Assembly (NCBI GenBank): GCA_043805315.1
Contig: JAZDID010000120.1
Coordinates: 1 to 45,680, forward strand
Direction of reading: 5' to 3'
From: Nanobdellota archaeon
GTDB lineage: Archaea > Nanobdellota > Nanobdellia > Woesearchaeales > JAHJEM01
DNA length: 45,680 bases
Part shown: positions 8,877-45,680 of the stretch, piece by piece
How the letters are laid out: each line of letters opens with the position of its first letter
Position numbering within the stretch: position 1 is the stretch's first letter
Notes under the pieces: model-generated
Database searches by the model: none
The model's input: the letters and a program-made list of their open reading frames with translations, nothing else
Told to the model about the DNA's origin: nothing
Position numbers and translations under genes: made by a program

Positions 8877-8897
8877 ACCCCTTTTTTCAGCCTCTTC

Positions 8898-9278: not shown

Positions 9279-9300
9279 CAACCTTTTATCATTCCCCTCG

Positions 9301-10380: not shown

Positions 10381-10388
10381 TACAAGTA

Positions 10389-11102: not shown

Positions 11103-11122
11103 GGCATTTTAAAAATAGAAGT

Positions 11123-11137
11123 GGTTTATAAATATTA
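11123..11137 (-). promoter_or_regulatory. Promoter box GGTTTATAAATATTA upstream of uppS
   Basis: The TATA core lies ~23 nt from ATG 11102. An identical 15-mer occurs at 13821-13835. Confidence 0.55.
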
Positions 11138-11157
11138 CTGATAATTGATTTATTCTC

Positions 11158-11709: not shown

Positions 11710-11820
11710 GATTTCCACCTAAAACCCATAATTTATGCAGGTAGAGGCTTTTTGGTTTAAATACATTGTGGTGCTAGAAAGAAGTGATGGCAAAAAAAGC
11801 AAGAATTACCTGAGAAAGCA

Positions 11821-11843
11821 ACAAAAAAAGAAAAAGTGAAAAA
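11821..11843 (-). terminator. Oligo-T tracts after the nucleotidyltransferase gene
   Basis: Plus-strand A7, A5 and A5 runs (11823-11829, 11831-11835, 11839-11843) read as T-runs on the minus strand, directly after the TAG stop. Confidence 0.45.
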
Positions 11844-20420: not shown

Positions 20421-20502
20421 CCTGTTCCCTCTTTTTTCCCTTTGGAGCTATCCTGGAATGGATGGTTTAAAAATGTTGCGGTGGTCTGAAGTCAGCTCGC
20501 AA

Positions 20503-20675
20503 GTTTGGCGAACGAGCCCATCCGCAAACTTTTCTGGATTGCGCCCACCCTCCACACTCTCCAGCCACTTATTCTGATTGTCCCCACCCTCTATCATTGA
20601 ACAAGTTCAATGGAGTTTGAGCCAAGCTCAAACCTCCCCCAACCACCACCCTGGGATGTGCAACGTAATACTTCG
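20503..20675 (+). repeat. C-rich intergenic repeat, copy C, with a 46-nt double-palindrome insertion
   Basis: Contains TTTGGCGAACGAG, CTTTTCTGGATTG, GATTGTCCCCACCC (20576-20589) and CCCCCAACCACCACC (20636-20650). The last two blocks are separated by 20590-20635, which holds the palindromes CATTGAACAAGTTCAATG (20595-20612) and GTTTGAGCCAAGCTCAAAC (20615-20633). Confidence 0.75.
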
Positions 20676-21099
20676 ACACTGTTGGCAGTCAGCTGGGCTC
20701 AACAGTCGGTTGTCTTCATGCCCCCACCGCTGCCCAAGATAGATTCAGTCGCATAAAAATAGATTATCAGAAATTGATCCAAAAAGATTGATCCCAAAAT
20801 GAAAAATTTTATATACGAAACTACATTCCCCTTTACTGAAACGGGGGGGTTTCGTGGGTGAATTTTATCAGTTGAAGAGAACATGCGTTTGTCAGAGAGA
20901 TGTCGATATGCCGCCGTGTTCTCTTCGAATTCCGCATTTTTCATTGCAGAATCAGCATGAATTAACCACTTATTCATGATACGGAAATGTTTATATACAC
21001 TGAGGATATCCCTTTGAAACTATCGTTAATTTATGTAGGGGTTGATATATTTTTCGAGGGTGCGAGGATTATCTCTCGGGATCATCCATAACATTCTCG

Positions 21100-21858
21100 G
21101 TGTGGGGTGGCACTATTCGCTGCGCAAAGCTGAACACGGAAAACACGATTGCCCTATCAGCACTAGTTCTTGCTGCCCTTTCCTTGCTCCTCCTCTCTTC
21201 ATGCACTGCAGCCAGGCAAGGCATGCCTGGTGAAAAGAGCGCAGGATCACCAGCCGCGCTTGCACAACAGGAATACGCACAGGCAGCACAAGAAGAGCAA
21301 CAGCAAGCCGAGAAAGAGCAGGCGATCGTTAAAAAACTCGTCACTCCAGAAGAAGTGGATGCAGCATACGCAAATCTTCCCCAACAATTGAAAGAGGAGA
21401 CGACCAAGGAAAAGCTCGCAGAATCTCTCGCCACAAACAAGCTCATGCTACAGGAGGCTGAGAAAAAATCGCTCACCGCAACCCAACAGGAAGTGGATGC
21501 GTACGTCGACAACCAGAGAAGGATAGCGAGCCTTGATGCGCAGGCATTCACAGCACGGATCGAGAGCCAGGGCTATACTATGGAAGAGTACACGCAGGCA
21601 GTCGAAAACCTTGTCACTGCCTCAAAGCTTCTTGAAAGCGAATTGCGCCTTTCGCAGGTCAATGCGTCTGAACAGGAAATCACCACCTACCTGCAGGACA
21701 ACAGGCAGGAATTCCAGGACTTCTTTGAAGAGAATGATCCTGCGCTTCTGGATGCGCTCAAGACAAGGATAGGCCAGAAGCTCACCAAAGAGAAACAAGA
21801 TGCTTTGGTGAAAGACTATGTAGCATCATTGAAAGAGGACGCGATAGCGCGCGGATAA
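21100..21858 (+). CDS. Lipoprotein with SurA/PrsA N-terminal-like chaperone domain (no PPIase domain seen)
   Basis: Lipobox-like LLLLSSC after a basic N-terminus. Helical repeats of the type VTPEEVDAAY..., TQQEVDAYVDNQ..., SEQEITTYLQDNRQEF are typical of SurA_N/PrsA chaperone modules. The GTG start at 21100 is uncertain. Confidence 0.7.
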   Translation: MWGGTIRCAKLNTENTIALSALVLAALSLLLLSSCTAARQGMPGEKSAGSPAALAQQEYAQAAQEEQQQAEKEQAIVKKLVTPEEVDAAYANLPQQLKEETTKEKLAESLATNKLMLQEAEKKSLTATQQEVDAYVDNQRRIASLDAQAFTARIESQGYTMEEYTQAVENLVTASKLLESELRLSQVNASEQEITTYLQDNRQEFQDFFEENDPALLDALKTRIGQKLTKEKQDALVKDYVASLKEDAIARG

Positions 21859-21953
21859 GCTCAACAAAGCAAGAAAAAAGACAACAGGCTCAACAACACA
21901 AAAAAGGCAGCGGCAAAACGTTACACTCATAAGGAAATCACGAGGCATCAATC

Positions 21954-24900
21954 ATGAGGAAAAAGGGCAGCACTATGCGGTTCACCTCACTAGTCCTTGT
22001 TCTTGGTGCGGTCATGCTCACATTCTTGTTCACGCTCAGCACCTCGTCAGGCCAGCTCTCAGTGGACAGCTGCAGCGTGCTCAACGAGTCCGCAATCCTC
22101 ACCGAGGACATCAACGCGACAGGCTCATGCTTCAGCATTATCGGAAATGACATTGAAATTGACTGTCAGCTCCACACCATTCAGGGAGATGGGACTGGAA
22201 TCGGGTTCTCGCTGTATAACAACAGCAATATCTTGATCAGGAATTGCATCGTCGAGAATTTTGAGACCGGGATAGATATCACAGACTCATTTGTTGGTGT
22301 CTACACTATATTGGTCAGACAGAACAGTAAAGGCATCATAACAAGAGGAGACTCTTACCTTGATACAGAAACCAATTCCATCAAAGAGAACGCCCTCGCG
22401 AACCTTGAGAACACCAATGGGAACTTCACCATAGCAGCGTATAACAACTGGTGGGGCACTGCAGACCCTGGTCAGATTGCGCTCACCATAATCGGCAATG
22501 TGAGCTTTGTCCCGTTCTTGGCCCTTGATCCGTATTCAGACGATGATGCAGATACAATCCCTTTGTTTTCAGACAACTGCCCTGCAGTCCCAAATCCTGA
22601 CCAGGGAGATGAAGACGGAGACGGCCTCGGGAATGTTTGCGATAACTGCGCTGACAACTTTAACCCTCTCCAGGGCGATCTGGATATGGATGCGGCCGGA
22701 GACGCCTGTGATCTCGATGACGACGCTGATGGCATCTGTGATTTCGGACTGAGTGTGACGCGGCCTTTGCCTGCCAATCTGGCCCTGAACAGGCCGGTGA
22801 CCGCATCGAACAGCGTCCCTCCGAACGTGCCAGAGTTTGCAGTTGACAGCGATCTGTTGACATTTCTGGCCATGGTCGGAGACCCGCCGCAAGATGTCAC
22901 AGTTGACCTGGAAAGCGCACAGCAAATTGAAAGGGTATCTGTGTTCTTCAATGACTCTGCATCACGCGCATTTGATTACAATATTGAGGTCAGCACAGAT
23001 GGAACAAGTTATGCCATCGCAGCGACTGTCCGCGATAATGATTTCACCGAGAACCACCTCTCCTTCCCTGCTCTCCAAGCCCGCTACGTGCGCCTCAGCC
23101 TCCTGGATTATGACTATGAGAAGGATGATGTGCGCATCAACGAGATCGAGGTGTACGGCTCGACGACATTGTGCACTGGCGGAAGTTCAGGAAGGGACGT
23201 GTGCCCGAGCATTTTTAATCCTGGGCAGGAGGATAGTGATAATGATACAGTGGGAGACGTATGCGATAATTGCCTCCTTACGCCTAATGTTGACCAGACA
23301 GACTCGGATAATGATGGAAAAGGGGATGGGTGTGATGTAAATGTTATGCTCGGGTCGTTCAGCTTCGACCCGCAGAATCCTGGTGAGCTGCCCAACATCA
23401 CCGAAGAGCTCCTCACCGATCAGGAGACCGGCTATTTCATCATCCAATACGCCGCAGGGATGGGGCAGAACATCACTGACGAGATAGCAGGCCGTGGAGG
23501 GCAGGTCAAGGGTTATTTCAACACAAACGGCATGATCGTCCAGGTGGCTGCGAGCCTCGGGGAGCTCCGGTCGTTAGACGCTGTCCGCTATGCTGACATC
23601 TACCAGCCCGTGTTCAAGATCGAGCCTCCGCTCTACGACCTCTACCTACACGGAGGACCCTCCGGGGACATCCTCTCCCTGGACGTGTACGTCTATGGTA
23701 ACAGCCAGGCGGTTATCAACTATGTTCTCTCGCTCGGCGGAACAGCAGTCCATAAGTATCTTGCTACTGATATCCAGTATGACAGGGTCCTCGTGGTGAA
23801 CATTACCGGGACGAAGCTCGCCAACCTCTCCCACCATCCCGACATCGAGTATATTGAGCTTAACTTTATTGACCAGCCTGAGCTGGACGTCGCGACGAAG
23901 ATCACTGATGTGCGGCGGGCATCAAACCAGCCGAATATCCTCGGTCTGACCGGCGCAGGGCAGATTATCGGCCATAGGGACACGGGCGTCGACACAGGCA
24001 ATGCGACCACGCTCATAGCCGACCTTGCAGGCAGAGTACTCAACGATTCAGGCCCGTGGCGTGACACGGACGGCCACGGCACTCACACGCTCGGCATCGC
24101 TATCGGGAACGGCGCCAATTCGGGAGGCCGCATCCGGGGCGTTGCTCCAGGGGCGACGGCCATCCACTCACCCTTCGCAGGTTCACCATTGGAATCGTGG
24201 ACAAACGCCTATAATAGGGGAGCGCGGATACACACGAACAGCTGGGGTAATGGATCGGGCACGACCTATAGTTCGCTCGAGAGCGAAGCCGACACGATAA
24301 CCAACACCAACCAGGATCTTTTACTCGTGAAATCTGCAGGGAACAACGGACCGGGGGCGGGAAGCATCACCTCGCCAACCGCATCGAAGAACCTCATCGC
24401 CGTAGCGAACTCAGAGAATGAACGTCCTGAAAGAACAGCCGCAAACAACGCAGCAGGGGCAGGAGTGGCAGACAATCGTAATCATCTGCGGAGGAGCAGC
24501 AGCGCGGGATTGACTGCTGACAACAGAATAAAACCAGATGTTACTGCACCAGGGACATGGATTTTATCCTTGCAATCGACAGCTCAGGCGAACATTGATC
24601 ATTGTGATGTCGATGGAGATGGTGTTACGGCAGAATCCTTTTATGCGAATCTCAATTATACATTCTGCACAGGCACCAGCATGGCAGCACCCCACGTCGC
24701 AGGCATGGGCGCGCTGATCCGGGAATACCTCATCAGCTTCAAGCACATGGTCAACCCGAGCGGCATGCTGGTCAAGGCCTTCATCATCAACGGCGCCCAA
24801 GACATGCCGGACACGGGAGTGATCGGCGGGGGAGGAGTGAACAGAGGGACAGGTCCCATACCGAACAATGATGAGGGCTGGGGAAGGGTCAATCTGACGC

Positions 24901-27900
24901 ATTCGATCATGCCCTCCGATCTTGTCGGCGCTGTGGATTTCTATGATTCCTTCAATAGGTTCTCGTTCAGTGCCAATGGGGAGAGGAAGAATTTCACGTT
25001 CCGGTTCTCGTCAGAGAGGCCGATCGCCGCGACCCTCGTCTGGTATGACCTTCCTGCCGCTGCAGCGACAGGCGGAGGTGTCGCGCTGATCAATGATCTC
25101 GATATGGAGATGATATCCCCGTCAGGCACCTGGTATAAAGGGGGGAATTTCGCAGGAAATTTTGTCGGAGGAATAACCCAAAGCGGAATCGCGGGAAAGG
25201 ACAGCAGAAACACCGTTGAAAAAATCATCGTCAGGGACGTGGAGGACGGCTTTTACAATTTCTCAATTCGGGCCCATAGCCTGCAGGCAGGCTCAACCCA
25301 GACCTTTGCCCTCGTCGTCTCGCAGCTCTTAGGTCTCGATGCAGCAAACAGGACCAATGTCACCCACTATTTTCCCGTTGGGAACAAAGTCTATGCAGAA
25401 GCGATCGGCTTAAAAAACAATACCCAGATTGAGCTCGTCGTGGTCGCCAACAGGCCGGTGTTCAAGTGGAATTCCACTGTCCAGGTCACGAATGGCGCCA
25501 GCCAGGGAGTCGGCGGATTCAAGTTCATCACCCAAACGCTCGTCCAAACAACAAACAATGGCACGCTTCCAGACCCTACAGAGATCTGGGATACTGCCGG
25601 GAAAGAGAATGAGGTCTGGGCATCCAATGGCATGTTCAACATCTTTGTCAATTACGGTCCCGGCCACCCGATCTATTTCAATAAGAATGTTGACGTGATC
25701 GACTACCACAAGAAGGTCGGTTTCAGGGTCGGCATCGCCAACTCCTCAAACACCCTCGGGGGCAACTTCTCTGACAACTTCACCTATGGCAGTCCGATCT
25801 TCATCAAGGGGGTCGGGTTTGAGCCCGGCAATGTGACGGTGTATGCGGTCAAGGACATCAATGCCTGGGTTGAGGATGCTCCCTTTGCTGATGTGGTGGA
25901 AAAGAAAGAAGGCGTCATCATAGGCAATGACGGCTTCTTCACGGCAAACGTATGGGATGCGCCAGAAAAGACAGAGACAGGAGATTATGATCTTGTCGTA
26001 GACGTTAACAATGACGGAAAATACCAAGCGTCAATTGATGTCATCGACGGAAAGACAATGAAGGGTTTCGTCGTCTCCTGCAAGCCAGGAGAAGTGTGCG
26101 GCGCTGTTGCGGCTGCAGACGCCTCAAGGGATGTCCAGGACGACTTCAACAAAGGAGATCCAGTTTTCGCCATCGGAAATCTTTACATCAGCCCCGGCCT
26201 TCTTTGGGTGCCGCCGGCCATTAATTTCTACAAGGTCTTCTCAAACTCGCCGGTTGAGGACCTTAACGGGGCGCCGCTCGTTGATGTCACTGGCGCGCCG
26301 ACGCCAATTAACGCGCCCAAAGGCCAGTTTATCAATATTAACACGCAGATATGGTCGTCAGCAGACCGTGAGGACGATTATGAGCTCATCCTCGATGTTG
26401 ACAATGACGGCATATTCAACATCTCCACAGATCTCTATGACCCGAACGGATTTGTGGTCACGAGGGAGATAAAGGACCCGCGCATCGCCGTGGACAGCCA
26501 AGGCAGCATCCACGTGGTCGCCTTGGAAAATGAGAAGGTGCCTGGCTACCCGAACCTGAAGAAGACGAACGTCCTCTACGCAAAGGTCCCTGCAGGGAGT
26601 GTCAAGATGGACTTTGAGCACCCTGAGCTGTTCGATTGGAGCGAGAGCCAGGCGGTCGTCTTCAGGACGATCTCTGAGAACTACGGCGGCACGGTGTACT
26701 TCCCTGACATTGCGGTCGACGCGAACGACGAGCCCTACATCATCTACAGCAGGTGGATATCGGAATTCCAGTGGCTCATCATCAGGAAACTGGACAAGAA
26801 TGGCAACAGGGACACGTGCTATGACCGTTCAGACCAGCTCACGCCGCCGGCGCCTGATAAGTCAAACTGCGATGGGAACGGCCTCGACCTATTAATCTAC
26901 CATTGGGACGATTTCGAGGACATCAAGCTCAACTGGCCAACAATAGCAGTAGATAAAACCACGAACCAGCCAGTCATCTCGGCAGAGGTCAGCATGATCT
27001 ATCCAGACGCGTTCTACTACACGCAGATCTACCCGCTCTGCTTCATCGGCTACCAGCCTATCTTCATCGGCCCGCTCATGCAGTTTGGCATCATCCCGTA
27101 TTTCCCGGTCCTCCAGGCAGGAGTCGTCACATTCTATGGAGATTCATTGCAAGTCGCCCGTCGTGTGCCAGGAAGCGCAGGCACCGCGCAGTGGCCGTAT
27201 TCTGTCTCTCAGTTCCCTGACGCAGCGAGGAGGTACGGGGCAGCGGCGACTGAGGTGAATGCCTGCCTTTGGGACGTCGCCACCTCAGGCTATCGGACTG
27301 ACGACAACTGGAAATGGATCACTGTCTCGCAGGTCCCACGGCTCGGCCTGTATTACGACACATCAAAAGTGGACACAGACAAGGACGGCAATATCCATGT
27401 TGTCTTCCGCCAGGGCAGCAACCTCAACTACTCGAAGATTGTCGGCTATGCTCCTGACTTCAACATTAAGATTGATGGCGGCGCTCCTCCCGCGCTGTGG
27501 TTCCCTTGGCTTGATGTCGACCTTGAAGGAAGGGGTCACGTGGCCTGGCAGAGCGGCAGCAAAGTGTATTATACTATTATTGATCCTGCTGGCAGTGCGG
27601 GAACCAAGCAGCTGGTAGCGAACCTGAATTCTCTTGACAGTTTTTCCAGGCCATCGGTGGCTGCTGACGGAGAGGGCGATCCGCACATCTCATGGAAAGA
27701 CAAGGGAAGCGATAGCAAGGACAAGCTCATGTATCGGAAGGGAGAGAATACTGGAGGCTCGGTCTCATTCCTTGACCCTGCCACTATTTTGGTGGATGCA
27801 GGCAATTTCACAGGAGCCTCTGGGCAGATCACGTATCCTGTGCTCGATACGAACAAGCTTGCTCAAGGCAAAGATTGGGAAGACAAAGTCACTGTCGGCT

Positions 27901-32732: not shown

Positions 32733-32778
32733 ATCACCCATCCTGCTCACATCAAAATCAATATTGGAGGCAACCAAC

Positions 32779-37350: not shown

Positions 37351-37372
37351 GCAAGGCATCACGAGGAACAAC

Positions 37373-37972
37373 GTGCAACGCAGACAAACACAGGAAAAGG
37401 GCATGCTCGACATGAGCATGTTCTCGACGAGGAAGCATTCCTGGATAGCGGCAGCTCTGCCGACCCTGCTCATGCTGGCTGCTATACTAATCGTAGGAGC
37501 GGCGCTGTCCGGATGCATCGAATACAACGGAGCGACAGTTCGAGTGACAGAAGTGGAAAAGGAACGGACGCACGAGTTCAGGATGGTGAGCGACGGCCAG
37601 CGCACCCTGCTTGAAGGGGCATTCAGCATCGACGGCAAATCCTATCCCGGCGAGATCTACTACGACGGGAAGAACAGCTACATCCTGCGCAAGAATCCAA
37701 ACCAGTGCATCAGCTATGACATCCCTGACAAGCTGCTGTTCGGCTTCAGGCCAATACCAGCACCTGCCGAAGAGGCCGCGTCTGGAGTCACTGTCCTCGA
37801 GAAAGACAGCAAAGACAGACCTATCATGTACAAACTTGTGGATCAGGGCATGACCTCCATCGTGGAGATCAATGGCATTGACCAGGCAACAGACGCGGGA
37901 AAAGGGTTCGACTTCAAGACGATTGATACGGGTACATGCATCAATGAAGGAGAGGTATATACTATTGGATAG
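37373..37972 (+). CDS. Small lipoprotein-like secreted protein (199 aa)
   Basis: GTG 37373 has GAGG 6 nt upstream (alternative ATG at 37403). Signal plus lipobox-like IVGAALSGC. No family recognised. Confidence 0.68.
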   Translation: MQRRQTQEKGMLDMSMFSTRKHSWIAAALPTLLMLAAILIVGAALSGCIEYNGATVRVTEVEKERTHEFRMVSDGQRTLLEGAFSIDGKSYPGEIYYDGKNSYILRKNPNQCISYDIPDKLLFGFRPIPAPAEEAASGVTVLEKDSKDRPIMYKLVDQGMTSIVEINGIDQATDAGKGFDFKTIDTGTCINEGEVYTIG

Positions 37973-40900
37973 GCAAACTCTAGAGGGGAAACGGGGAAGG
38001 GGGAAACAAGGGAAGAGCCTGTTCTCTGCCGGAGCATTGCTCCTGCTCTTGCTCCTGCTCTCTCTTCTCATGGCAGGCCTTGCCCTCGCAGCAACCCGCA
38101 AGCCGATTGTCCATCCGATCACCCTGCCGCCCCAGGTCCAGGTCCTGTTCCCGAACAATGGGGAGAACATCACCACACGCACCCTCAATGTCAGCTGGAA
38201 CGCCTTTGACCCGGACGGAGACGTGGTCACGCTCAACATCTTCGTGGACAGGAATAGTGACCCTGCAGACGGCTCCATCCAGGTCGCGTCGAGCGAGCCG
38301 AACGACGGCTGGTACATCCTCGACCTCCTCCCTCTTGCGCTTCCAGAGGACTATTACTACATCCGCGTGGACGCTGTCGCAGACATTGAACGGGTGACTG
38401 ATTATGCTGACCTGCCGTTCTACAAAGGAGGATTTGCTGTCAACTACAGCTCTGGACAGTACCAGGCGAGTGTCCTGCTTGTCCAGCAGCCAGAGATCAC
38501 TGTCTCGCCAGACCTCGCACCGCTCGGGAGAGGCATCTACCCGATCAGGTTCACTGTCCGCGACCCCAACCATGAGTCCCTGTTCGGCACATTCTATTAC
38601 TCGAGCTCGCCTGGCCAGCGCCAGAACCTCATCAGCCAGAACATTCCCCTTTCGAACATCTGCACTGATCCTGACGGCGATACTGCCACTGCCAACAACT
38701 GCACGCTGTACTGGAACACAACGCTCAACGCGAACGTGTCTATCGACATCGTGGCTACCAACACCCACCTTGAGGGGAATGCGAGCACACCACTCGTGCA
38801 GTTCGACAACAACCCTGAGGTCCAGGTCCTGTTCCCGAACGGCGGAGAGGAGCTCACGGACCGGTATGTGACCGCATCCTGGACAGCGGGAGACGTGGCT
38901 AACTTCAGCGTCCTCATCGACCTGTACTATGACGATGATGCAACAGCGTTCAACGGCAGGACCCTCATCGCGAGCGCAGAGCCCAATGACGGCTTCTATG
39001 TCTGGGACCTGCACACCGTGCAGGCAGGCGATTATTACCTGAGCATTGACGCGCGCTCCTCAGGCGTGGACAGCTCTGGCAACCCCATCACCGTGTCAAG
39101 CACTGACTACAGCAATGCCCTGTTCAGGAAGCGGGGCTTCAACGAGTCCTTCACAAGCGTCTTCGTGAGCAACAACTACACGGTCACGGTGAACGAGGCG
39201 CCTGCAGTGGAAGTCACTTCTCCGAACGGCGGAGAAACGATCAACGGGACCCAATCAGTGCAGTTCAATGTCTCAGACCTCCAGGGAGATTTCCTTGCCG
39301 CGAGCATCTACTATTCCACAGTACCCGGAGCAAAGGAGAATCTGATTGGGGCGAACATCTCGCTCAACAGCACCTACTGCGCAGACCCTGACGGGACGAC
39401 ATCCACAGAGAACAGCTGCGCCTATTCTTGGGACACTCTCGGACTGAATGGGAATTATTACCTCGACATCCTGGTGAGCGACTCCATCCTTACGGGATTC
39501 GACAGCTCTGACGCGAGCTTCACCGTGAACAACTATCCGCGAATTATGAACCTAACGGTGAGCAATGTTACGGACCAGAGCAGCCTCATATCCTGGCAGA
39601 CGCCTGACGAGGACACGAACGCCACTGTGCGCTACGGCCTTGACCAAAACCTGACACAGCAGACCTCAACGCTGAGCGTTGGCAGGATACAGGTGATCCT
39701 TCTGCAGAATCTCGTGGGAAACAAGGTCTATTATTTCAGCGCATTAAGCTGTGACGCGACAGGCTTGTGCACGAGCTCGAGCATCAGGAACTTCACGACT
39801 CTCGACAACAGGCCAGCCCTTGCGGTGCTCTCTCCGAATGGAGGAGAGGTCTTCACGACATCACAAGTGAACATCACTTGGAATGCAACAGACCCTGACC
39901 AGGACCCGATCACTCTCGACGTGTACTATGACACCGACAATCTCAGCGTGAACGGCAGGAACCTGATCTCGTCAGGTGAGGTGAATGACGGCTGGCTTGT
40001 CTGGAACATCCAGAACCTGAACAACGGGAATTACTTTGTCAGCATCGATGCAAACACCACAAGCCTGACAGAAGGCCCTGTCATTGTGCAGGACTACTCT
40101 GACAATTCATTCGAGAAGTCAGACATCTCTCTTGTCTACACCAGCAACGCCTACCAGGCTGATGTCTTGAAGAATGCGCCTGTCTCTATTGTTATCGGGG
40201 TGAATGACACAGAGCCGCTCGAAGACAATGTGACCATCAGCTTCAACCTCACAGACCTTGAGGACCAGTTCCTAACTGTATCACTCTTCTATTCTTCAGC
40301 TCCAGGATTGAAAGAGTATGCACTCTTCACTGATCTCATCATCAATGCATCCTTCTGCGCAGTGGTGCAGCAGCACAGCCAAGGAGGCGCCAGCTATGGA
40401 TGCGAGGTTGTCATAGACTCTGACAGCATCAACGGAGACTTCTACCTCGACCTTGAGGCAGACGACAGCATCCACACCAGCCTGAACAGCTCAAGCCTGC
40501 TCGCTTTCAACAACCCGCCGCACTTCATGAACATCCAGGTGCTTGACATCGACACCCACACGGTGCAGGTCAGCTGGCAGACCGCAGAGCTGACGAATGC
40601 GAGCATCAGCTATGGCCTGTCGCAGAATTACACCGACCGTGCTGCGGATAGCAATCCCCTCCTGAACCAATCCCTTGTCCTTGCGAACCTGACCGGCAAT
40701 AGGCGCTACCACTTCATGATCACGAGCTGCGACACCTCAGGAAAGTGCACGAGCACGCAGGACATGAACTTCACAACGCTCAACAACCTGCCCATTGTCC
40801 AGGTCATCTATCCGAACGGCGGCGAGCAGATCGACCAGCAGGTTCTGAACATCCAGTGGTCAGCGGTTGATGAAGACCTCGACCCGGCAACTCTTGATAT

Positions 40901-43900
40901 CTTCTATGACGTCGATGCGAACACGGCGAACGGCAGGTTCCTCATCGCAGCAAACCAGCAGAACAACGGCTCGTACACCTGGGACCTCTCCGGCCTCCAG
41001 CCAGGGCCGTATTATATCAGCATCGATGCCAAGAGCCAGGACCTCAGGCAAGGCCAGGTCACTGTGACTGATTACTCTGACGGGCGGTTCACCAAAGGCC
41101 AGTTCGGAAACACCTTCACGAGCAACTCCTACAATGTGACGGTTTTCAAGAATACCAATCCCTTCGGCAACATCACCTCTCCAACACTGTTCAGCATCCT
41201 GGTGAGGAACACCACGATCAACTTTACCGTGCATGACAATGAGGGAGACGGCCTGTATGCGAGCATCTATTATGGCGGAGAGATATTCCGCAGGCAGCTG
41301 ATCGTTACGAATCCCAGGAATACGCCACTCATCAGCTATCCAGTCTCTGCAGTCATCGACACCAAGACATTGATCGAGCAGCACAAGCTCAGGCCAGACG
41401 CAGTCGAGCTCAAGATCATCGTGGACGGGATAGAAGAGCAGCTCTTCATCGAGTCCGGATTGAACACGAACGCAACCGTCGTCTGGTTCAGCGTCAGCCT
41501 GCAGCCAGGCCAGACCAGGAATGACATCTACCTCTTGTATGGCGCTGCAGCATCATTGGCAATGGAGCGGAGCGAGCCGGATTGGACGAGGTTCTTGCCA
41601 AGCCTCAATGTGCTCGCGAACAAGCCCATCCTCAGCTTCTCATCAGAGGCAGTGGGCTTCCCTGCAGCGAACAGCAATGACAACAACACCGCAACAAAAT
41701 GGAGAGGGACAGGAAGCAGCGATTTCATCAGATACAACCTCACTGGCTTGCACAATCCGTCCATGGTGAAGTTCACCGCAGGATCAGGTACCAACCATTC
41801 CCGTGCCAGGTTCTCTCTCGACAATGCCAATTTCACGGTCATCAATGAGACCACGTTTTGGACAGGAACAGTGCAGAACATCAGCTTCAGGCCGATTGAG
41901 ATGCGCTACCTGCTCATCGACCAGATCACCTCGACGACACAGAGCGACATCTTCGAGATTGAGCTCTTCACCCCCTTGCTCATCCAGGCAGCGATCGGAG
42001 CAGAGAGTGCAGGAAGCAAAGTGCCCATCGTGCTCGGGCTTGACCTGTCCAATCCTGCGACCTGCACAGACCCTGATGGCTCCACAACAACGCCAAACAA
42101 CTGCTCGTACTTCTGGGACATGTCGCAGCTTGACGGAGAGTTCTGCATCAGGCTTGAGACAACCGACCTGATCTCAGAGACCGCAGTGCACGAAGTATGC
42201 AACATCACTATCGACAACATCAATGATTACCCTCTCCTGGTCATCCCGGTTCTGAACCAGCGCTGGGAGGTCAACACAGAGCTGATCAACGCGTTTGACC
42301 TGGATGACTATTTCAGGGATCCGAACAACGACACCCTCACATTCAATGTGACTGGCAACAGCATCATCACTGTAGGAATCGATCCCTTCACGCACCTTGT
42401 GAGCTTCAGCCAGCCGCAGAACTTCACCGGAAAGGAATTCGTGACCTTCATCGCAGACGACGGCTATCGCGGCATCACAGCCAGCAACCTAGTGGAGCTG
42501 TTTGTCACGCCCACAAAGCCGAACATCTCAGGTCTGCCAGACCAGTTCTTGCTTGAGGACTCGCCTATAGGGTTCAGCGTAGACTTATGGAATTATTCAT
42601 CAGATCAGGAAATGAATCTTTCACAGCTCTCCTATGCAGTCGTGAGCCAGACCAATGCCAGCCTGATCAATTGCGTCATCACCGGCGGGCACTTTGCCAC
42701 CTGCCTTGCGCCGCGGGCAAACGCGTCGGGAGAGTCAATCGTCAATGTCAGCGTCTCTGACAGTACATCCTTTGACTATGACTACTTCTCGATCACAGTC
42801 ATCGAGATCAATGACGCGCCTGACATCGCGAACCTGCCGGACAAGACCATCCTGGAGGACCAGGATCCTCCTGACAATTGGATCGACCTCTGGAATTATA
42901 CACAGGATGTTGAAGATCCGGACAGCAGTCTGGCATTCACCATCACAAGCCAGACAAACACCGGCCTGATCAGCTGCGACATTGCCTCGAACAGGTTTGT
43001 GAACTGCTCCAGTCCCTCGCCGACGCAATCAGGATTCAGTGATGTCAGCGTGCAGGCCACGGATACAGGAAACCTGACAGATGCAGACACCTTCAGGGTG
43101 ACCGTCATTCCTGTAGATAACATGCCGGTCATCACCCTGCTTGAACCGGTGAACGGGTATAGTACAATAGATTTCACGCTCAACTTCAGCTACACGGTCA
43201 CAGACATTGACGACACCTGGTTCCTCTGCGACCTGATCATCGACAGCATTGTGCAGGTGAATGACCGAAACGTTAGCAATGGCACAGTTGCCCTGGAAAC
43301 AGTGAGCAACCTTTCGGCAGGCATGCACACCTGGAGAGCCAGGTGCACTGACAGGTCCAACACTGCACTGTCAGAGAACAGGAGCTTCAGCATCTTCACA
43401 GACCTTGAGATTACGACGGCAGACATCACGTTCTCAGATGAGCTGCCCTTGCAGGGAGACACCATCAACATCACTGCAATAGTCAGGAACCTTGGCAGGG
43501 TTGACGCGCTCAATGTCCCTGTCGCATTCTTCCTGAACACCATACGGTTCAGCACCCAGCTCGTCAGCATACCGCAGAACAACTCGAGAAGCATCACGAT
43601 ACCATTCAACACCGGTCCTTTCACAGGGAACAACACCATCCTCGTGAAGGTGAATGAGAACGCGACAATCCAGGAGACCAACCTTGACAACAATAACGCG
43701 AGCAAAGCGCTCTTCATCACCCAGGACATCTTCCCGCCAGCATATGACGGGCTTGTCCAGCTGCCTGCAAACATTACTGAGCAAACAGGGAGTGTGAACA
43801 TCTCTGTCAATGTCACAGACAGGGGTTCAGGAGTCAATCCAACGACTGTGCGCTTGATCTACACCCTTGGAATAGGAGTGCCGCAAGTTGTGGGCATGTC

Positions 43901-45680
43901 AACAGAGAACAACAGGAGGTACACGGCAGTATTCTCGCCTGACTTCAACAGCAACCAGGGCCAGAACTTCACCTATTATATTACTGCGCAGGACAACAGG
44001 GCGAACACGAACAGGACAGAGGACTTCATTGATTACATCGACCCGATCAATGACCCTCCCGCAGTCACGATTGCCAGGCCAGACAACCAGACCTCATTCA
44101 ACCTGCAGGGTCAGGTCATCTGGAACGTTTTTGACGAGGACAATGACCCCACGATTTCATCACTCTACTACAGGACACGTGCGAGCAGCTCGCTGACCTC
44201 GGCTGCGGGGTCATACATGTTCATCACTACCACTGCAATCAATGAGACAACTTTCCTCTGGAACACTTCAGGCATCAGCCAAGGCCATTACCAGCTCAAG
44301 ATCAATGCATCTGACGGCGCAGCGCAAGGAGAGCAGGAGTCCGCAATATTCACCATAGACCACACGCCGCCAGCAGGAGTGACCCTGGTCTCGCCGATCA
44401 ATGGCACCACGACGAACCAAGAGCCAGTGCAGTTCAGGTTCAACACCTCGGACAACCTCGCAGCTACTCTCGCCTGCGACCTCTTCATCGACGGATTTAT
44501 GGGGGTCGTAAACATCTCTGCCCAGAACAGCACGCAGAAGGTGCAGAATGTACCTGGCATTCCTGAGGGAGCGCATAGCTGGTCTGTGGTGTGCAGGGAT
44601 CTCGCAGGCCTGAGTGCGGCGAGCCTGACAGAGCAGTTCTCAGTCGACAGGACCAGGCCGACCATCATGCTCCAAGAGCCCGTGCCTGCCGCAGTCTTCA
44701 GCCAGCCGAACATCATCTTCAACTTCACTGCAACCGACAATGTCGATAGCCTGTTGGACTGCGCCCTGCTCATCAACGGAGGCCAGAAGGGCAGCATAAC
44801 AGCGCTCAACAATACCTTCACGAGCATCATGGCTACATCGCTCAACAGCCAGGTGCACAACTGGCAGGTGCGCTGCACAGACGAGGCAGCGAACGGGAAC
44901 ACTACTGAGTCCAGGATCCTCAATATCCAGACAGACCTCAGCATCGCATCCAGCGACATCACCTTCTCTCCAGAGACGCCGACGCAGGGCACAAGCACGA
45001 CAGCCAATGCGACCATCCGCAACCTGGGCATAGCCAATGCGAGCAGCGTGCTTGTGGAGTTCTATGACCAGTTCAATGTGCTGAAAGGCAGCAGGACCGT
45101 GAACGTGCCTGCGCTCGGAAGTGCGACTGCAAGCATCACCTGGAGCCTGGCAGGCTACAGCCCTGGAGAGCATCCCTTGCAGGCCATCATCCAGCAGGGC
45201 CCCTACCTGGACAGCAACCTCGCGAACAACGAGGCGGGCAAGAACATCACGATCATCCTTGACCAGGATGCACCGGTCTTCTCACAAATCCTCACGACTC
45301 CACGAAATATCACCGAACACACGCTGAGCGCAAGCTTTGATGTCAACATCACGGACACTGGTGTCGGAATCGATCCGAGCTCGGTTCTCCTGAATTATTC
45401 CGTCGGCGCAATCTCAGGATCTAAAGCGATGACTCTTGTTTCAGGCAACACCTATCGTGCTGTCTTGAACAGGAGCGATATAGACTTTGACGCCCTGCAG
45501 GGAAACACGCTGTCATTCCTGGCTGCAGCGCGCGACCTGAATGGAAATGCAGGGACATCACTGCTGCAGCAGGAGTACATCGATCCGGTGAATGATGCGC
45601 CGAACATCACGATCTTCCTGCCGGACGCGAGCTCGCAGTGGGGAGGCGTGCAGACCATCCTCTTCAATGTCGACAATGAC
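37965..45680 (+). CDS. Giant surface protein, 5'-complete and 3'-truncated by the window end (more than 2570 aa); Ig-like PNGGE modules, FN3, discoidin, cadherin-like and CARDB domains
   Basis: This ORF is not in the supplied ORF track.
- Frame 0 has no stop that I found when reading by eye from the TGA at 37851-37853 to nt 45680, and the track lists no frame-0 ORF there.
- Candidate starts: TTG 37965 (AGGAGAGGT 8 nt upstream, 8-nt overlap with the previous gene), ATG 37872, ATG 38070.
- Signal peptide: KRGRGKQGKSLFSAGALLLLLLLLSLLMAGLALAA.
- FN3 domains: 39538-39810 and 40514-40790.
- Discoidin-like domain: 41610-41975.
- Three ~100-aa cadherin-like repeats: 42225-43125.
- CARDB-like domains: 43401-43720 and 44934-45255. 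Confidence 0.9.
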   Translation, partial: MDRQTLEGKRGRGKQGKSLFSAGALLLLLLLLSLLMAGLALAATRKPIVHPITLPPQVQVLFPNNGENITTRTLNVSWNAFDPDGDVVTLNIFVDRNSDPADGSIQVASSEPNDGWYILDLLPLALPEDYYYIRVDAVADIERVTDYADLPFYKGGFAVNYSSGQYQASVLLVQQPEITVSPDLAPLGRGIYPIRFTVRDPNHESLFGTFYYSSSPGQRQNLISQNIPLSNICTDPDGDTATANNCTLYWNTTLNANVSIDIVATNTHLEGNASTPLVQFDNNPEVQVLFPNGGEELTDRYVTASWTAGDVANFSVLIDLYYDDDATAFNGRTLIASAEPNDGFYVWDLHTVQAGDYYLSIDARSSGVDSSGNPITVSSTDYSNALFRKRGFNESFTSVFVSNNYTVTVNEAPAVEVTSPNGGETINGTQSVQFNVSDLQGDFLAASIYYSTVPGAKENLIGANISLNSTYCADPDGTTSTENSCAYSWDTLGLNGNYYLDILVSDSILTGFDSSDASFTVNNYPRIMNLTVSNVTDQSSLISWQTPDEDTNATVRYGLDQNLTQQTSTLSVGRIQVILLQNLVGNKVYYFSALSCDATGLCTSSSIRNFTTLDNRPALAVLSPNGGEVFTTSQVNITWNATDPDQDPITLDVYYDTDNLSVNGRNLISSGEVNDGWLVWNIQNLNNGNYFVSIDANTTSLTEGPVIVQDYSDNSFEKSDISLVYTSNAYQADVLKNAPVSIVIGVNDTEPLEDNVTISFNLTDLEDQFLTVSLFYSSAPGLKEYALFTDLIINASFCAVVQQHSQGGASYGCEVVIDSDSINGDFYLDLEADDSIHTSLNSSSLLAFNNPPHFMNIQVLDIDTHTVQVSWQTAELTNASISYGLSQNYTDRAADSNPLLNQSLVLANLTGNRRYHFMITSCDTSGKCTSTQDMNFTTLNNLPIVQVIYPNGGEQIDQQVLNIQWSAVDEDLDPATLDIFYDVDANTANGRFLIAANQQNNGSYTWDLSGLQPGPYYISIDAKSQDLRQGQVTVTDYSDGRFTKGQFGNTFTSNSYNVTVFKNTNPFGNITSPTLFSILVRNTTINFTVHDNEGDGLYASIYYGGEIFRRQLIVTNPRNTPLISYPVSAVIDTKTLIEQHKLRPDAVELKIIVDGIEEQLFIESGLNTNATVVWFSVSLQPGQTRNDIYLLYGAAASLAMERSEPDWTRFLPSLNVLANKPILSFSSEAVGFPAANSNDNNTATKWRGTGSSDFIRYNLTGLHNPSMVKFTAGSGTNHSRARFSLDNANFTVINETTFWTGTVQNISFRPIEMRYLLIDQITSTTQSDIFEIELFTPLLIQAAIGAESAGSKVPIVLGLDLSNPATCTDPDGSTTTPNNCSYFWDMSQLDGEFCIRLETTDLISETAVHEVCNITIDNINDYPLLVIPVLNQRWEVNTELINAFDLDDYFRDPNNDTLTFNVTGNSIITVGIDPFTHLVSFSQPQNFTGKEFVTFIADDGYRGITASNLVELFVTPTKPNISGLPDQFLLEDSPIGFSVDLWNYSSDQEMNLSQLSYAVVSQTNASLINCVITGGHFATCLAPRANASGESIVNVSVSDSTSFDYDYFSITVIEINDAPDIANLPDKTILEDQDPPDNWIDLWNYTQDVEDPDSSLAFTITSQTNTGLISCDIASNRFVNCSSPSPTQSGFSDVSVQATDTGNLTDADTFRVTVIPVDNMPVITLLEPVNGYSTIDFTLNFSYTVTDIDDTWFLCDLIIDSIVQVNDRNVSNGTVALETVSNLSAGMHTWRARCTDRSNTALSENRSFSIFTDLEITTADITFSDELPLQGDTINITAIVRNLGRVDALNVPVAFFLNTIRFSTQLVSIPQNNSRSITIPFNTGPFTGNNTILVKVNENATIQETNLDNNNASKALFITQDIFPPAYDGLVQLPANITEQTGSVNISVNVTDRGSGVNPTTVRLIYTLGIGVPQVVGMSTENNRRYTAVFSPDFNSNQGQNFTYYITAQDNRANTNRTEDFIDYIDPINDPPAVTIARPDNQTSFNLQGQVIWNVFDEDNDPTISSLYYRTRASSSLTSAAGSYMFITTTAINETTFLWNTSGISQGHYQLKINASDGAAQGEQESAIFTIDHTPPAGVTLVSPINGTTTNQEPVQFRFNTSDNLAATLACDLFIDGFMGVVNISAQNSTQKVQNVPGIPEGAHSWSVVCRDLAGLSAASLTEQFSVDRTRPTIMLQEPVPAAVFSQPNIIFNFTATDNVDSLLDCALLINGGQKGSITALNNTFTSIMATSLNSQVHNWQVRCTDEAANGNTTESRILNIQTDLSIASSDITFSPETPTQGTSTTANATIRNLGIANASSVLVEFYDQFNVLKGSRTVNVPALGSATASITWSLAGYSPGEHPLQAIIQQGPYLDSNLANNEAGKNITIILDQDAPVFSQILTTPRNITEHTLSASFDVNITDTGVGIDPSSVLLNYSVGAISGSKAMTLVSGNTYRAVLNRSDIDFDALQGNTLSFLAAARDLNGNAGTSLLQQEYIDPVNDAPNITIFLPDASSQWGGVQTILFNVDND
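38128..41050 (+). repeat. Four tandem super-repeats of the form [PNGGE Ig-like module - second Ig-like module with C-x-DPDG...C - (FN3)]
   Basis: Module starts:
- VQVLFPNNGE at 38128
- VQVLFPNGGE at 38815
- VTSPNGGE at ~39212
- LSPNGGE at 39820
- IYPNGGE at 40795
The 23-mer AGGTCCAGGTCCTGTTCCCGAAC is identical at ~38135 and ~38817. Confidence 0.8.

Follow-up and report, generated by a model that had tools for sequence, protein, structure and literature searches.

A giant protease/phosphodiesterase gene beside a SurA/PrsA-type chaperone gene: a candidate attachment and scavenging cassette in a DPANN archaeon

Giant surface proteins with adhesin and enzyme domains are regarded as a hallmark of the DPANN archaea, where they have been implicated in host interaction (SPEARE proteins; PMC6642349, PMC10266531). 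A bacterial parallel exists in the Omnitrophota, where giant proteins with S8 protease and TSP3/dockerin modules have been linked to predation, and where a PPIase of the PrsA/SurA family (Rotamase_2) is conserved beside the giant genes (bioRxiv 10.1101/2023.11.21.568195). According to work cited in PMC4922055, PrsA is a lipoprotein that acts as a foldase outside the cytoplasm, and chaperone activity persists in SurA without its parvulin domains. The giant protein of the locus described here is not a SPEARE protein, and the gene next to it lacks a parvulin domain. The original prediction held that the locus was not a described system. Our literature searches turned up no account of a locus of this kind, but the statement was too broad, since both the DPANN giants and the Omnitrophota PPIase neighbor have already been reported.

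The window, by which we mean the whole stretch of DNA that was analyzed, is an entire 45,680-nt contig of a MAG, and the 3' end of its last gene can therefore not be extended. According to the open reading frame calls, five co-directional plus-strand genes, g1 to g5, fill positions 21100-45680, an island of more than 24 kb. These genes and their upstream neighbors are:

14813-17056 and 17103-20420, minus strand: two divergent genes of 747 aa and 1105 aa with N-terminal hydrophobic anchors
20421..21099, no strand: divergent intergenic region of 679 nt separating g1 from the minus-strand 1105-aa gene, read from the sequence
21100..21858, plus strand: g1, 252 aa from the GTG at 21100, SurA/PrsA-type module without parvulin PPIase domain
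21954..32732, plus strand: g2, 3592 aa, multidomain giant, secreted or anchored at its N-terminus
32779..37350, plus strand: g3, FG-GAP protein of 1523 aa that begins with a basic tail and has a single TM segment
37373..37972, plus strand: g4, predicted 199-aa lipoprotein with lipobox LSGC (Cys48) and beta-rich mature part
37944..45680, plus strand: g5, longer than 2579 aa and cut off by the contig end, an anchor followed by Ig-like, fn3, CARDB and discoidin-like modules

The gaps from g1 to g4 measure 95, 46 and 22 nt, and g4 and g5 overlap by 29 nt. This layout had been predicted with products of 3592, about 1520 and more than 2570 aa, and was borne out (3592 aa; 1523 or 1528 aa; 2579 aa and open), as was the N-terminal signal or lipobox on each product, with a hydrophobic anchor or lipobox predicted for all five. 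The starts of g2, g3 and g4 are preceded at 7-9 nt by GAGG or GGAGG, an operon-like feature, and sequence inspection revealed no runs of five or more T in any of the four gaps between g1 and g5. Inside 20421..21099 there are TTTATATA-type TATA-like boxes, and this putative promoter region is likely to serve the plus-strand cluster. In GC3, the island equals the housekeeping genes of the contig, and by this match it is native to the genome. The two minus-strand genes contain no recognisable domains (Pfam/NCBIfam) and did not turn up in the related loci that were looked at. They are possible further members of the secretome; given the N-terminal anchor that each of them has, this stretch reaches beyond 21100-45680.

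That a SurA-like chaperone heads the cluster agrees with the profile matches of g1. Pfam assigns SurA_N_3 marginally (28 bits, cut-off 27.2), NCBIfam assigns the PrsA-like PRK00059 (8e-7), and g1 orthologues match SurA_N_3 at 4e-13 and 7e-13. When g1 is compared with PrsA/PpiC-like proteins by hhalign (99.4%, E 1.4e-21), its aa 69-206 correspond to the region before the parvulin domain, and its C-terminal tail shows a weak but consistent match to the helix that follows this domain. SurA structures were the sole matches in a PDB sequence search. As AF2 gave only a poor model (pLDDT 56), the fold assignment derives from profile homology only; the best Foldseek matches of this model, none of them significant, were the SurA-like chaperones PEB4/Cj1289, LIC12922 and SurA. 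Judged by its profiles, g1 is homologous to the SurA/PrsA N-domain, with the parvulin domain missing. Its hydrophobic segment (aa 17-35) closes in the lipobox LSSC (Cys35), and the orthologues carry N-terminal TM segments. The NCBI call is shorter (211 aa, beginning at M42).

The two hydrolase domains that had been predicted among the modules are both found in g2, with the catalytic residues of each present. Downstream of a hydrophobic segment (aa 10-28), g2 is organized as follows:

22056..22523, plus strand: right-handed beta-helix 'head' ending in NNWWGT (aa ~35-190; weak Pfam Beta_helix match, 1.5e-3)
22539..23339, plus strand: two TSP_3 blocks with an F5/8 type C (discoidin) domain between them (aa 196-462; discoidin aa 282-390)
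23955..25325, plus strand: KP-43/SubHal-type subtilase (S8) with C-terminal jelly-roll domain (aa 668-1124)
25326..27956, plus strand: conserved region, unassigned domain (aa 1125-2001)
27957..28685, plus strand: type I phosphodiesterase/nucleotide pyrophosphatase of the alkaline-phosphatase superfamily (aa 2002-2244)
28686..31943, plus strand: family-defining conserved region without known domain (aa 2245-3330)
31944..32681, plus strand: Big_9, He_PIG, cadherin-like and PKD Ig-fold repeats (aa 3331-3576)

NosD/Beta_helix matches occur in relatives, and the same N-terminal beta-helix module heads many other large proteins. In Pfam, TSP_3 reaches 26.8 bits against a cut-off of 25 (blocks at 4e-6 and 5e-5), and the discoidin domain matches F5_F8_type_C (3e-11) and F5_F8_type_C_2 (1.6e-12). 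The protease domain matches Peptidase_S8 (Pfam, 7e-32) and the PDB entries 5fax/1wmd (8e-39), with D676, H708 and S909 aligned to the catalytic triad, and the jelly-roll domain corresponds to residues 332-432 of 1wmd (5e-12). The Phosphodiest domain (Pfam, 1.3e-19) aligns with the Xanthomonas NPP 2gsn with matching ligand motifs, comprising D2008, the nucleophile T2046/T2047, H-D-H-G at 2180-2183 and S-D-H-G at 2224-2227. All 11 members of the g2 family, which are collinear and about 3,350-4,035 aa long (orthologues 31-52% identical over the full length), have both enzyme domains. The S8 triad is unchanged in 11 of 11; the metal and nucleophile residues of the NPP domain are retained in most. 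As one member, P0020, has lost these ligands, phosphodiesterase activity is not universally required.

Approximately 2,000 aa of g2 are without assignable function. The region aa 1125-2001 has no Pfam or PDB sequence match apart from a weak BNR_4 (0.026) and a PDIAV_lipo match, and is conserved among orthologues at 40-64% per 100 aa; going by its motifs, it looks like a series of Ig-like modules whose loops are of the DxDxDG type, with beta-propeller-like repeats of 'aVDxxGxxHvvw' after them. A PDB sequence search with aa 2245-3330 yielded no match, and a segment at aa ~2975-3170 is weakly GldG/ThuA-like (alpha/beta). With this region, phmmer retrieved 68 matches at or below 1e-30 from 1.84e9 representatives, and about 10 full-length proteins align with g2 end to end and have the region at the same relative position. 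The C-terminal repeats match Big_9 (2e-18), He_PIG (4e-14) and Cadherin_4 (1e-10) in Pfam, and g2 closes with the motif A-C-D-P-D-x4-C (aa 3567-3576), which is invariant in all 11 members. N-glycosylation sequons number 59, compared to 37 expected.

For g3, translation may start at TTG 32764 (1528 aa) or at ATG 32779 (1523 aa), the latter with GGAGG 9 nt before it. Behind a basic tail of 85 aa lies the hydrophobic segment (aa 86-104). Pfam finds FG-GAP_3 in 16 stretches (1.7e-72), and we count about 19-21 FG-GAP blades, which corresponds to roughly three 7-bladed propellers of integrin-alpha type (nt 33193-36420), with 19 Dx[DN]x[DN]G calcium-binding motifs spaced by 52-58 aa. The C-terminal domain of about 300 aa is of no known type; like the start of g5, it has a conserved counterpart in the close relative L001. 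Since neither g2 nor g3 has a C-terminal anchor, these proteins are possibly released rather than displayed. In g4, the LSGC lipobox follows a hydrophobic stretch (aa 25-43) and is kept in P0004, a metagenome fragment with 82% identity. Apart from g4 itself, P0004 is the only relative, there is no match in Pfam or NCBIfam, and AF2 yields a poor model (pLDDT 49); by sequence, g4 is a lineage-specific orphan. The hydrophobic segment of g5 (aa 31-49) is followed by Pfam matches to CARDB (3e-17), Kre9_KNH, Big_7, fn3, Big_13 and Pur_ac_phosph_N (only the fn3-like N domain). Its N-x-S/T sequons are strongly enriched (93 versus 42 expected). Together with the sequon excess of g2, the N-terminal anchors and the regularly spaced calcium-binding motifs of g3, this enrichment counts as a signature of extracellular proteins. 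Across the island, Pfam recovered every domain type named in the original prediction, adhesion-type modules and hydrolases alike.

Linkage of the five genes in related genomes had been named as a test of the prediction. The order of a SurA_N gene, a g2-like gene and a giant CARDB and/or FG-GAP gene recurs in at least seven related lineages, which is stronger synteny than expected, but all five genes together do not form a single conserved system. The loci with the cassette are:

the window, and L002 with 84.5% nucleotide identity to it
L003, from a MAG labelled Aenigmatarchaeota
L004
L035
L037/L038, labelled Woesearchaeota
L039, labelled Woesearchaeota
the ENA contig of P0030

Three members carry a Woesearchaeota label and one an Aenigmatarchaeota label. 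The adjacency of g1 and g2, which abut or overlap by 4 nt in relatives, holds down to a g2 identity of 31%. The similarity of g3 to the third gene of other loci is at the level of repeats only, g5 does not significantly match the third gene in L003 or L037, and just one close relative (~82% identity) shares g4 along with the g3 and g5 sequences. Because what lies downstream elsewhere is not orthologous to g3, g4 or g5, the five-gene unit is lineage-specific. Gene order and sequence comparison identify the conserved unit as a cassette of three genes, g1, g2 and a giant third gene.

We favor, with a probability of about 0.6, the interpretation of a cell-surface locus of a DPANN (Woesearchaeota-type) archaeon, with a three-gene core in which g1 is a holdase and the giants serve attachment and scavenging. 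The genes would be co-transcribed from 20421-21099, and g2, g3 and g5 would pass Sec unfolded. On the outward side of the membrane, held by its lipobox or TM segment, g1 would act as dedicated extracytoplasmic holdase/foldase for the long emerging g2 chain, much like PrsA of Gram-positive bacteria, which serves secreted enzymes including subtilisin. N-terminal signal-anchors would keep the mature giants attached and projecting from the cell, where lectin-like, cadherin-like and propeller modules may provide calcium-dependent binding to a partner cell or matrix. Protease and phosphodiesterase could then free peptides and nucleotides or phosphate for an organism with little biosynthesis. The small lipoprotein g4 and the Ig/fn3/CARDB giant g5 would be further, lineage-specific members beside the core.

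Adjacency is no proof of a chaperone-client relation between g1 and g2, and g1 could also be a general foldase or a tether. The locus might belong to an ordinary envelope or housekeeping secretome, with structural giants (wall- or S-layer-associated, or matrix) of a cell that lives freely or is only loosely attached, no host-interaction apparatus, and g1 as the single general foldase that happens to lie next to its largest client. We consider this unlikely. It is in line with the lack of host, pilus or secretion genes within the window, with Ig-like, CARDB, FG-GAP and beta-helix modules being generic among archaeal surface proteins, with downstream partners that differ between lineages and with the native GC3, which suggests long residence. 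However, it would be unusual for a general foldase to remain adjacent to g2 across seven lineages and down to 31% g2 identity, frequently with stop and start codons that overlap; the conserved triad and NPP residues speak for enzymatic rather than purely structural roles, and the DPANN precedent ties giant surface proteins to host contact. A tether or adaptor, or a secretion or processing cofactor, which holds g2 via its helical domain without being a chaperone, is improbable for g1. Such a role would suit its membrane anchor, present in all cases, the missing C-terminal anchor of g2 and the invariant cysteine motif at the g2 end, which could be a docking element, but g2 has its own N-terminal hydrophobic anchor, and g1 not only shares aa 69-206 with the substrate-binding N-domain of PrsA/SurA-type foldases, but also retains their C-terminal helix.

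The hydrolases of g2 could alternatively be offensive, parasitic or predatory, breaching the S-layer and phosphodiester-linked envelope polymers of a host to establish a cytoplasmic bridge while FG-GAP/CARDB giants lock the cells together, similar to what has been proposed for the Omnitrophota 'Archaeovorins'. Both hydrolases are intact by motif and belong to one long protein of many modules, further giants neighboring the L003 cassette carry NlpC/P60 and alpha/beta-hydrolase domains, and the modules recall those of the Omnitrophota giants linked to predation. Pfam, however, detects no pore-forming, toxin or glycoside-hydrolase domain in g2, g3 or g5, and we regard a weapon as rather doubtful, even if the present data do not separate it from scavenging. 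Assembly artefacts or chimeras, arising from collapse or mis-joins across repeated modules, would be conceivable for modular, repetitive proteins on a short-read MAG contig that cuts g5 at its end. They are highly improbable here, since repeat copies are only 60-83% identical at the DNA level and form no long tandem arrays, 10 proteins from independent assemblies align collinearly with g2 and show few gaps, the GC3 of the island is that of the housekeeping genes, and the g1/g2 and g3/g4/g5 junctions recur on contigs of another metagenome.

In the attachment and scavenging interpretation, which we prefer, the cassette is a concrete candidate for host attachment and nutrient scavenging in a tiny, symbiotic-type (DPANN/Woesearchaeota-like) archaeon.

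Five genes on the plus strand, g1 to g5, fill positions 21100-45680:

21100-21858, plus strand: g1, small SurA/PrsA-like protein, 252 aa from GTG (ORF table and frame scan)
21954-32732, plus strand: g2, giant of 3,592 aa (ORF table and frame scan)
32764/32779-37350, plus strand: g3, FG-GAP giant, 1,528 aa from TTG or 1,523 aa from ATG
37373-37972, plus strand: g4, small lipoprotein-like protein, 199 aa
37944 to the last base of the window, plus strand: g5, Ig/fn3/CARDB giant, 2,579 aa so far, ORF open at the contig end

The ORF coordinates agree with the gap sizes of the original prediction: 95, 46 and 22 nt, then a 29-nt overlap of g4 and g5. The window spans a complete contig of 45,680 nt; exact-sequence searches with g1, g2, g4 and the protein P0001, meant to extend it, gave no match. 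GAGG or GGAGG stands 7-9 nt upstream of the starts of g2, g3 (ATG 32779) and g4; for g3, the candidate starts are TTG 32764, ATG 32779 or a later Met, and the GGAGG favours ATG 32779. Runs of at least five T, the usual archaeal termination signal, are absent from all four g1-g5 junctions, and TTTATATA-type boxes are present in the 679-nt region upstream of g1. A hydrophobicity scan found one hydrophobic segment at the amino terminus of each of the five proteins, as had been proposed, followed by lipobox-like motifs in g1 (LSSC) and g4 (LSGC). The same scan detected no C-terminal membrane segment in the encoded proteins as far as they are sequenced (the 3' end of g5 is missing). The predicted island of more than 24 kb holds at 24.6 kb, but the secretome stretch is longer, about 31 kb, because two divergent upstream genes also encode N-terminally anchored proteins:

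14813-17056, minus strand: 747-aa protein, N-terminal anchor, no Pfam/NCBIfam domain
17103-20420, minus strand: 1,105-aa protein with 26 Cys, N-terminal anchor, no Pfam/NCBIfam domain

Neither of these two genes was found in the related loci. A PrsA-like match in the 1,105-aa protein (aa 823-922) is very weak (E 0.013).

The five-gene layout is real. DNA repeats within 14-45.7 kb are merely 60-83% identical, long tandem arrays are absent from this region, and both the gene junctions and the full-length g2 architecture recur in independent assemblies. A step in GC content at about 21 kb raised the possibility of a foreign origin or a chimera. We rejected it, because the GC3 of the island (0.65-0.72) is that of housekeeping genes, namely the contig's polyprenyl synthase, UppS and CBS genes, and it is the second codon position (GC2), and hence amino-acid composition, that raises the G+C of the island.

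Low GC3 (0.39-0.51) was observed at 2340-7891, a segment that may be an integrated element:

2340-4309: three domain-less ORFs
4704-5516: tyrosine recombinase/integrase
6101-6457: PadR regulator
6848-7408: HTH protein
7496-7891: PIN-domain toxin

At the 5' end of the window, a 387-aa Ser/Thr-rich ORF (1002-2165) shares about 300 nt, in a different frame, with the ORF of a 378-aa protein for which six TM segments are predicted (170-1306). Pfam gave no match for either ORF, and one of them is probably spurious. Neither Rfam nor tRNA scans of the window produced a match.

Pfam search of g1-g5 recovered every domain type that had been listed, including the two hydrolases. Both of these reside in g2, because a "purple acid phosphatase" match in g5 covers only the fn3-like N-domain of that enzyme. 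In g2, Pfam detects a weak Beta_helix, two blocks of TSP_3 (4e-6, 5e-5), F5/8 type C (3e-11), Peptidase_S8 (7e-32), Phosphodiest (1e-19) and, towards the carboxy terminus, Big_9/He_PIG/cadherin-like/PKD modules. The S8 module (aa 668-1124) is of the KP-43/SubHal type (PDB 1wmd/5fax, 8e-39). D676, H708 and S909, in D-H-S order, and NSWG with the oxyanion Asn align with 5fax/1wmd, the jelly-roll domain C-terminal to the subtilase is also matched (5e-12), and the catalytic triad is invariant in 11 of 11 g2-family members. The NPP-type phosphodiesterase (aa 2002-2244) aligns with Xanthomonas NPP (2gsn) at the metal-binding D2008, the Thr nucleophile (T2046/2047), HDHG 2180-2183 and SDHG 2224-2227; the distal His ligand (H363 in 2gsn) was not located in g2. 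These residues are kept in the orthologues of two related loci, L003 and L004, and are nearly invariant over the 11-member alignment. One family member, P0020, has lost them (HDHG to NDLG, SDHG to SDLG), and its phosphodiesterase is probably inactive.

Around 2,000 residues of g2 (aa 1125-2001 and 2245-3330) have no Pfam or PDB-profile match, and PDB profile searches with aa 470-665, 1500-2000, 2245-2700 and 2700-3330 returned no matches. It is a speculative suggestion that aa 466-660 form the pro-domain of the subtilase. Near the carboxy terminus, an A-C-D-P-D-x4-C motif (aa 3567-3576, nt 32652-32681), invariant in all 11 members, may form a disulfide/Ca knot or serve as a signal for docking or sorting; the window's g2 is alone in the family in having a 16-aa tail beyond it. 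At the other end, the beta-helix head terminating in NNWWGT (aa 28-205, nt 22035-22568) is shared with many otherwise unrelated large metagenome proteins (L008-L034), as well as with two further giants at L003 (7-12892), and may be widely used by DPANN giants as a "head" or export module.

In an index of 5.8 billion proteins, g1 (83% identity) and g4 (82%) have no more than a single close relative each. Both relatives stem from one JGI metagenome, whose short contigs repeat the g1-g2 and g3-g4-g5 junctions, and a 987-nt Logan contig has the same g1-g2 junction. A genome scan with g2 as query identified L003, in a MAG from groundwater that is labelled Ca. Aenigmatarchaeota, with a g2 orthologue of 3,583 aa that is 46% identical and collinear over residues 15-3581. 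Directly upstream is a 240-aa gene with SurA_N_3 (4e-13) and 37% identity to g1, and downstream lies a giant (more than 1,754 aa) with CARDB and FG-GAP domains. A first metagenome scan, with g2 aa 2245-3330 as query, found no relative; a second, with the whole alignment as query, found the L004 orthologue (3,642 aa, 45%), the start of which is overlapped by a g1 homologue and which is followed immediately by a signal-peptide/CARDB-like ORF. With g2 aa 2245-3330 as query, an exhaustive phmmer search produced 68 matches at 1e-30 or better, among them about ten full-length relatives (3,347-4,035 aa) that match end-to-end at the same relative position with 31-52% identity.

We inspected the gene context of three of these full-length relatives. 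The locus of P0020 (Woesearchaeota-labelled) has a 209-aa g1-family gene, then P0020, then an FG-GAP giant. At the P0030 locus, a SurA_N gene is followed by a 683-aa NosD+S8 gene, P0030 and a 5,697-aa protein. At the P0023 locus (also Woesearchaeota-labelled), a SurA_N gene (7e-13) precedes P0023 and an 8,195-aa protein, which begins with three CARDB, discoidin and ten FG-GAP domains. The order of SurA_N anchor protein, S8/NPP giant and CARDB/FG-GAP giant thus holds in 7 of 7 lineages examined.

Not everything in the window is shared to the same extent. S8 and Phosphodiest domains are present in 11 of 11 g2-family members, discoidin and TSP3 being facultative. Similarity of g3 to the third gene of other loci is at the level of repeats only, g4 is an orphan beyond its relative in the JGI metagenome, and g5 does not significantly match the giants that lie downstream at the two loci tested (L003 and L037). 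The proposed five-gene system was therefore upheld for the linkage of SurA_N gene, g2 and a giant, but not for the sequences of g3, g4 and g5: the conserved entity is a three-gene cassette, not a five-gene island. Database entries name the family members only "S8 family serine peptidase", "SurA N-terminal domain-containing protein" or "hypothetical protein".

Three side observations concern the relatives. Two more giants lie directly upstream of the L003 cassette (7-2763 and 2813-12892), which makes the island larger still there; jointly they contain NosD/beta-helix, NlpC/P60, alpha/beta-hydrolase, PKD, CARDB and TSP3 domains. L004 has archaeal type IV pilus-like genes (PilB/T2SSE ATPase, two T2SSF; 52-5578) 4-10 kb upstream of the cassette. 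The g2-family protein P0024 (4,035 aa) has an inserted metallo-beta-lactamase-fold domain.

The Pfam match of g1 to SurA_N_3 is just above the cut-off (28.0 versus 27.2 bits), and two g1 orthologues score 49.9 and 49.1 bits. In hhalign, a profile of eight g1-family proteins aligns with PrsA/PpiC-like proteins (SurA_N plus rotamase) at 99.4% and E 1.4e-21. The alignment spans g1 aa 69-206 and stops at the start of the relatives' parvulin domain; neither g1 nor any of its seven relatives (209-252 aa) matches the Rotamase family. A profile of the post-parvulin C-terminus matches the g1 family weakly (P0013 4e-8, P0005 3e-5, the window's g1 domain 2e-3, in an 8-sequence database), and this weak helix match falls on the last 35-40 residues with constant placement across members. 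The only PDB sequence match of g1 is SurA, and it is weak (E about 0.5). Because of the alignment to PrsA/PpiC-like proteins and the missing rotamase domain in every member, we read g1 as the predicted N plus C chaperone core of a SurA/PrsA-type foldase minus the isomerase, with a PrsA-like tether. An AlphaFold2 model of g1 (2-sequence alignment) was too poor to help (pLDDT 56). Its Foldseek matches were not significant, and we give no weight to SurA-like chaperones being at the top.

As to the tether, a hydrophobic segment at g1 aa 17-35 ends in LSSC. The NCBI protein V1743_07150 (211 aa) is 100% identical to g1 and starts at Met42 (nt 21223), leaving out 21100-21222 and thus the hydrophobic segment and lipobox that are read from GTG 21100. 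As all g1 orthologues have an N-terminal TM segment, the deposited start is probably wrong and the longer form from GTG is favoured.

For g3, Pfam reports FG-GAP_3 (1.7e-72, 16 stretches) and FG-GAP (6e-31), and 19 Dx[DN]x[DN]G calcium-loop motifs are spaced by 52-58 residues. An estimated 19-21 blades would fit about three seven-bladed propellers of the integrin-alpha type. The 85-aa basic tail before the TM segment of g3 contains a TKQRS-type low-complexity segment, encoded by a 15-nt tandem repeat (3.2 copies, 32964-33011). The g4 protein is 100% identical to NCBI V1743_07165; its AlphaFold2 model (2-sequence alignment) has a pLDDT of 49, and Foldseek gave no significant match (galectins and LolA are meaningless here). 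In g5, Pfam finds CARDB, fn3, Big_7, Kre9_KNH, Big_13 and a weak discoidin domain. There are 93 N-x-S/T sequons in g5, versus 42 expected from composition, and 59 versus 37 in g2. Heavily N-glycosylated surface proteins of archaea typically show such an excess. At 9301-11102, a polyprenyl (GGPP-type) synthase gene and a cis-prenyltransferase (UppS-type) gene adjoin convergently. The UppS-type enzyme would be a source of dolichol-type carriers for N-glycosylation, which the richness of g5 and g2 in sequons implies.

SPEARE proteins of Nanohaloarchaeota, up to 9,409 aa long and seen by proteomics, are defined by a C-terminal TM segment and, on the cytoplasmic side, a VirB4/TraG-like ATPase that was first taken for a restriction enzyme; they have laminin-G domains, and their protease assignment is disputed (PMC6642349, PMC10266531). 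The initial claim of an undescribed system was too broad, DPANN giant surface proteins being a recognised class (PMC6642349, PMC10266531). Like the window's giants, SPEARE proteins are multi-thousand-residue extracytoplasmic DPANN proteins with Ig/PKD-like adhesion modules and a proposed serine-protease region; in both cases the proteins account for a percent-scale part of a genome of roughly 1 Mb, with a proposed role in host interaction. However, the sole anchor of g2 and g3 is N-terminal, and Pfam finds no ATPase or helicase family in either of them, and no laminin-G in g2, g3 or g5, where Ig, cadherin, discoidin and FG-GAP are present. The S8 triad of g2 is explicit and invariant, unlike the disputed SPEARE protease, and g1 adjoins g2, whereas a SurA-like partner gene has not been described for SPEARE. 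We therefore rejected SPEARE membership for g2 and g3, which are without a C-terminal TM segment or ATPase; g5, with its missing 3' end, lies outside this verdict.

For g1, the relevant comparison is with SurA, PrsA and PpiD. The N-terminal chaperone domain aligns and the C-terminal helix is matched weakly, the lipobox tether of g1 is as in PrsA, and the TM tether of its orthologues as in PpiD. Classical PrsA clients include secreted subtilisin-type enzymes. In contrast to all three, g1 has no parvulin PPIase, its archaeal host has neither outer membrane nor peptidoglycan, and its gene is coupled to one giant putative client, whereas PrsA and SurA are stand-alone general factors. According to work cited in PMC4922055, an engineered parvulin-less SurA keeps its chaperone function, and PrsA is a tethered foldase. 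Our literature searches yielded no description of SurA/PrsA-type chaperones in archaea or DPANN, and no archaeal example of a dedicated extracytoplasmic chaperone. For the chaperone link, the closest precedent comes from bacteria: upstream of the giant genes of Omnitrophota lies a secretion-system locus with a conserved Rotamase_2 PPIase (bioRxiv 10.1101/2023.11.21.568195). Omnitrophota giants resemble g2 in being secreted proteins with S8, thrombospondin type 3 and adhesion modules, made by ultra-small, host-dependent cells. They differ in being bacterial and in their size (over 10,000-30,000 aa), and their neighbour is a full PPIase in a T2SS/T4P-like locus of more than 10 genes, whereas g1 is parvulin-less and adjoins the giant; T2SS/T4P or Rotamase matches are absent from the entire window.

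Other likenesses are at the domain level. KP-43/SubHal subtilases share S8 and jelly-roll with g2, but are free 43-kDa secreted enzymes, whereas the g2 module is buried in a 3,592-aa chain. The likeness to NPP (2gsn) comprises the Thr nucleophile and the Zn-ligand motifs of g2, that to integrin-alpha the calcium-loop blades of g3; unlike in the NPP and integrin-alpha contexts, the modules sit in archaeal giants.

These data suggest a model for the locus. The genes g1-g5 would be co-transcribed, and the giants would leave the cell unfolded via Sec, kept attached by their N-terminal signal-anchors, with the basic tail of g3 on the cytoplasmic side of its TM segment. At the outer face of the membrane, g1 would bind g2, whose chain is very long, and shield it during the folding of its roughly 20 modules; the small SurA/PrsA-like protein may thus be a dedicated extracytoplasmic chaperone. 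Alternatively, g1 could be a tether: it is anchored, as a tether would be, but against this its profile aligns with the chaperone region of PrsA/PpiC-like proteins. We consider the tether less likely than the chaperone. Once mature, the giants would stick out and grip the surface of a partner, using Ca-dependent modules (TSP3, cadherin-like, FG-GAP) together with the lectin-like discoidin domain, and the subtilase and NPP modules would free peptides and nucleotides or phosphate. On present data, a more aggressive role, in which the hydrolases breach the host envelope, is inseparable from scavenging. That the giants are purely structural envelope proteins is compatible with domain types that archaeal surface proteins commonly have, and less likely for a family that keeps the S8 triad in all 11 members and the NPP residues in most. 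The most far-reaching interpretation is that Woesearchaeota-type DPANN may have a dedicated, vertically conserved three-gene module, in which a g1-type chaperone would specifically mature one enzyme-adhesin of roughly 3,600 aa, and this protein, together with the FG-GAP/CARDB giant, would form a host-contact and feeding organelle. We put its probability at about 40%, which makes it tentative.

The original interpretation was largely right in kind. What appears to be new, judging from sequence comparison, is a defined, collinear family of predicted S8+NPP giants with about 2,000 residues of conserved sequence unmatched in Pfam and PDB, the archaeal pairing, seen in each of the seven lineages examined, of such a giant with a putative parvulin-less SurA/PrsA-like anchor protein, and an FG-GAP/CARDB giant as the apparent recurrent partner.

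To our knowledge, how DPANN recognize, hold and feed on their partners is largely unexplained outside a few cultivated halophiles and thermophiles, and we know of no cultured model for the huge freshwater and groundwater radiation of Woesearchaeota. The locus is a conserved, experimentally tractable candidate, with a protease and a phosphodiesterase, both predicted to be intact, carried by a single giant protein, an integrin-like propeller giant as partner, and g1. If the dedicated module is real, it would give Archaea their first described case of an extracytoplasmic chaperone system with a specific client, and would provide a molecular handle on how non-halophilic DPANN attach to and exploit their partners.
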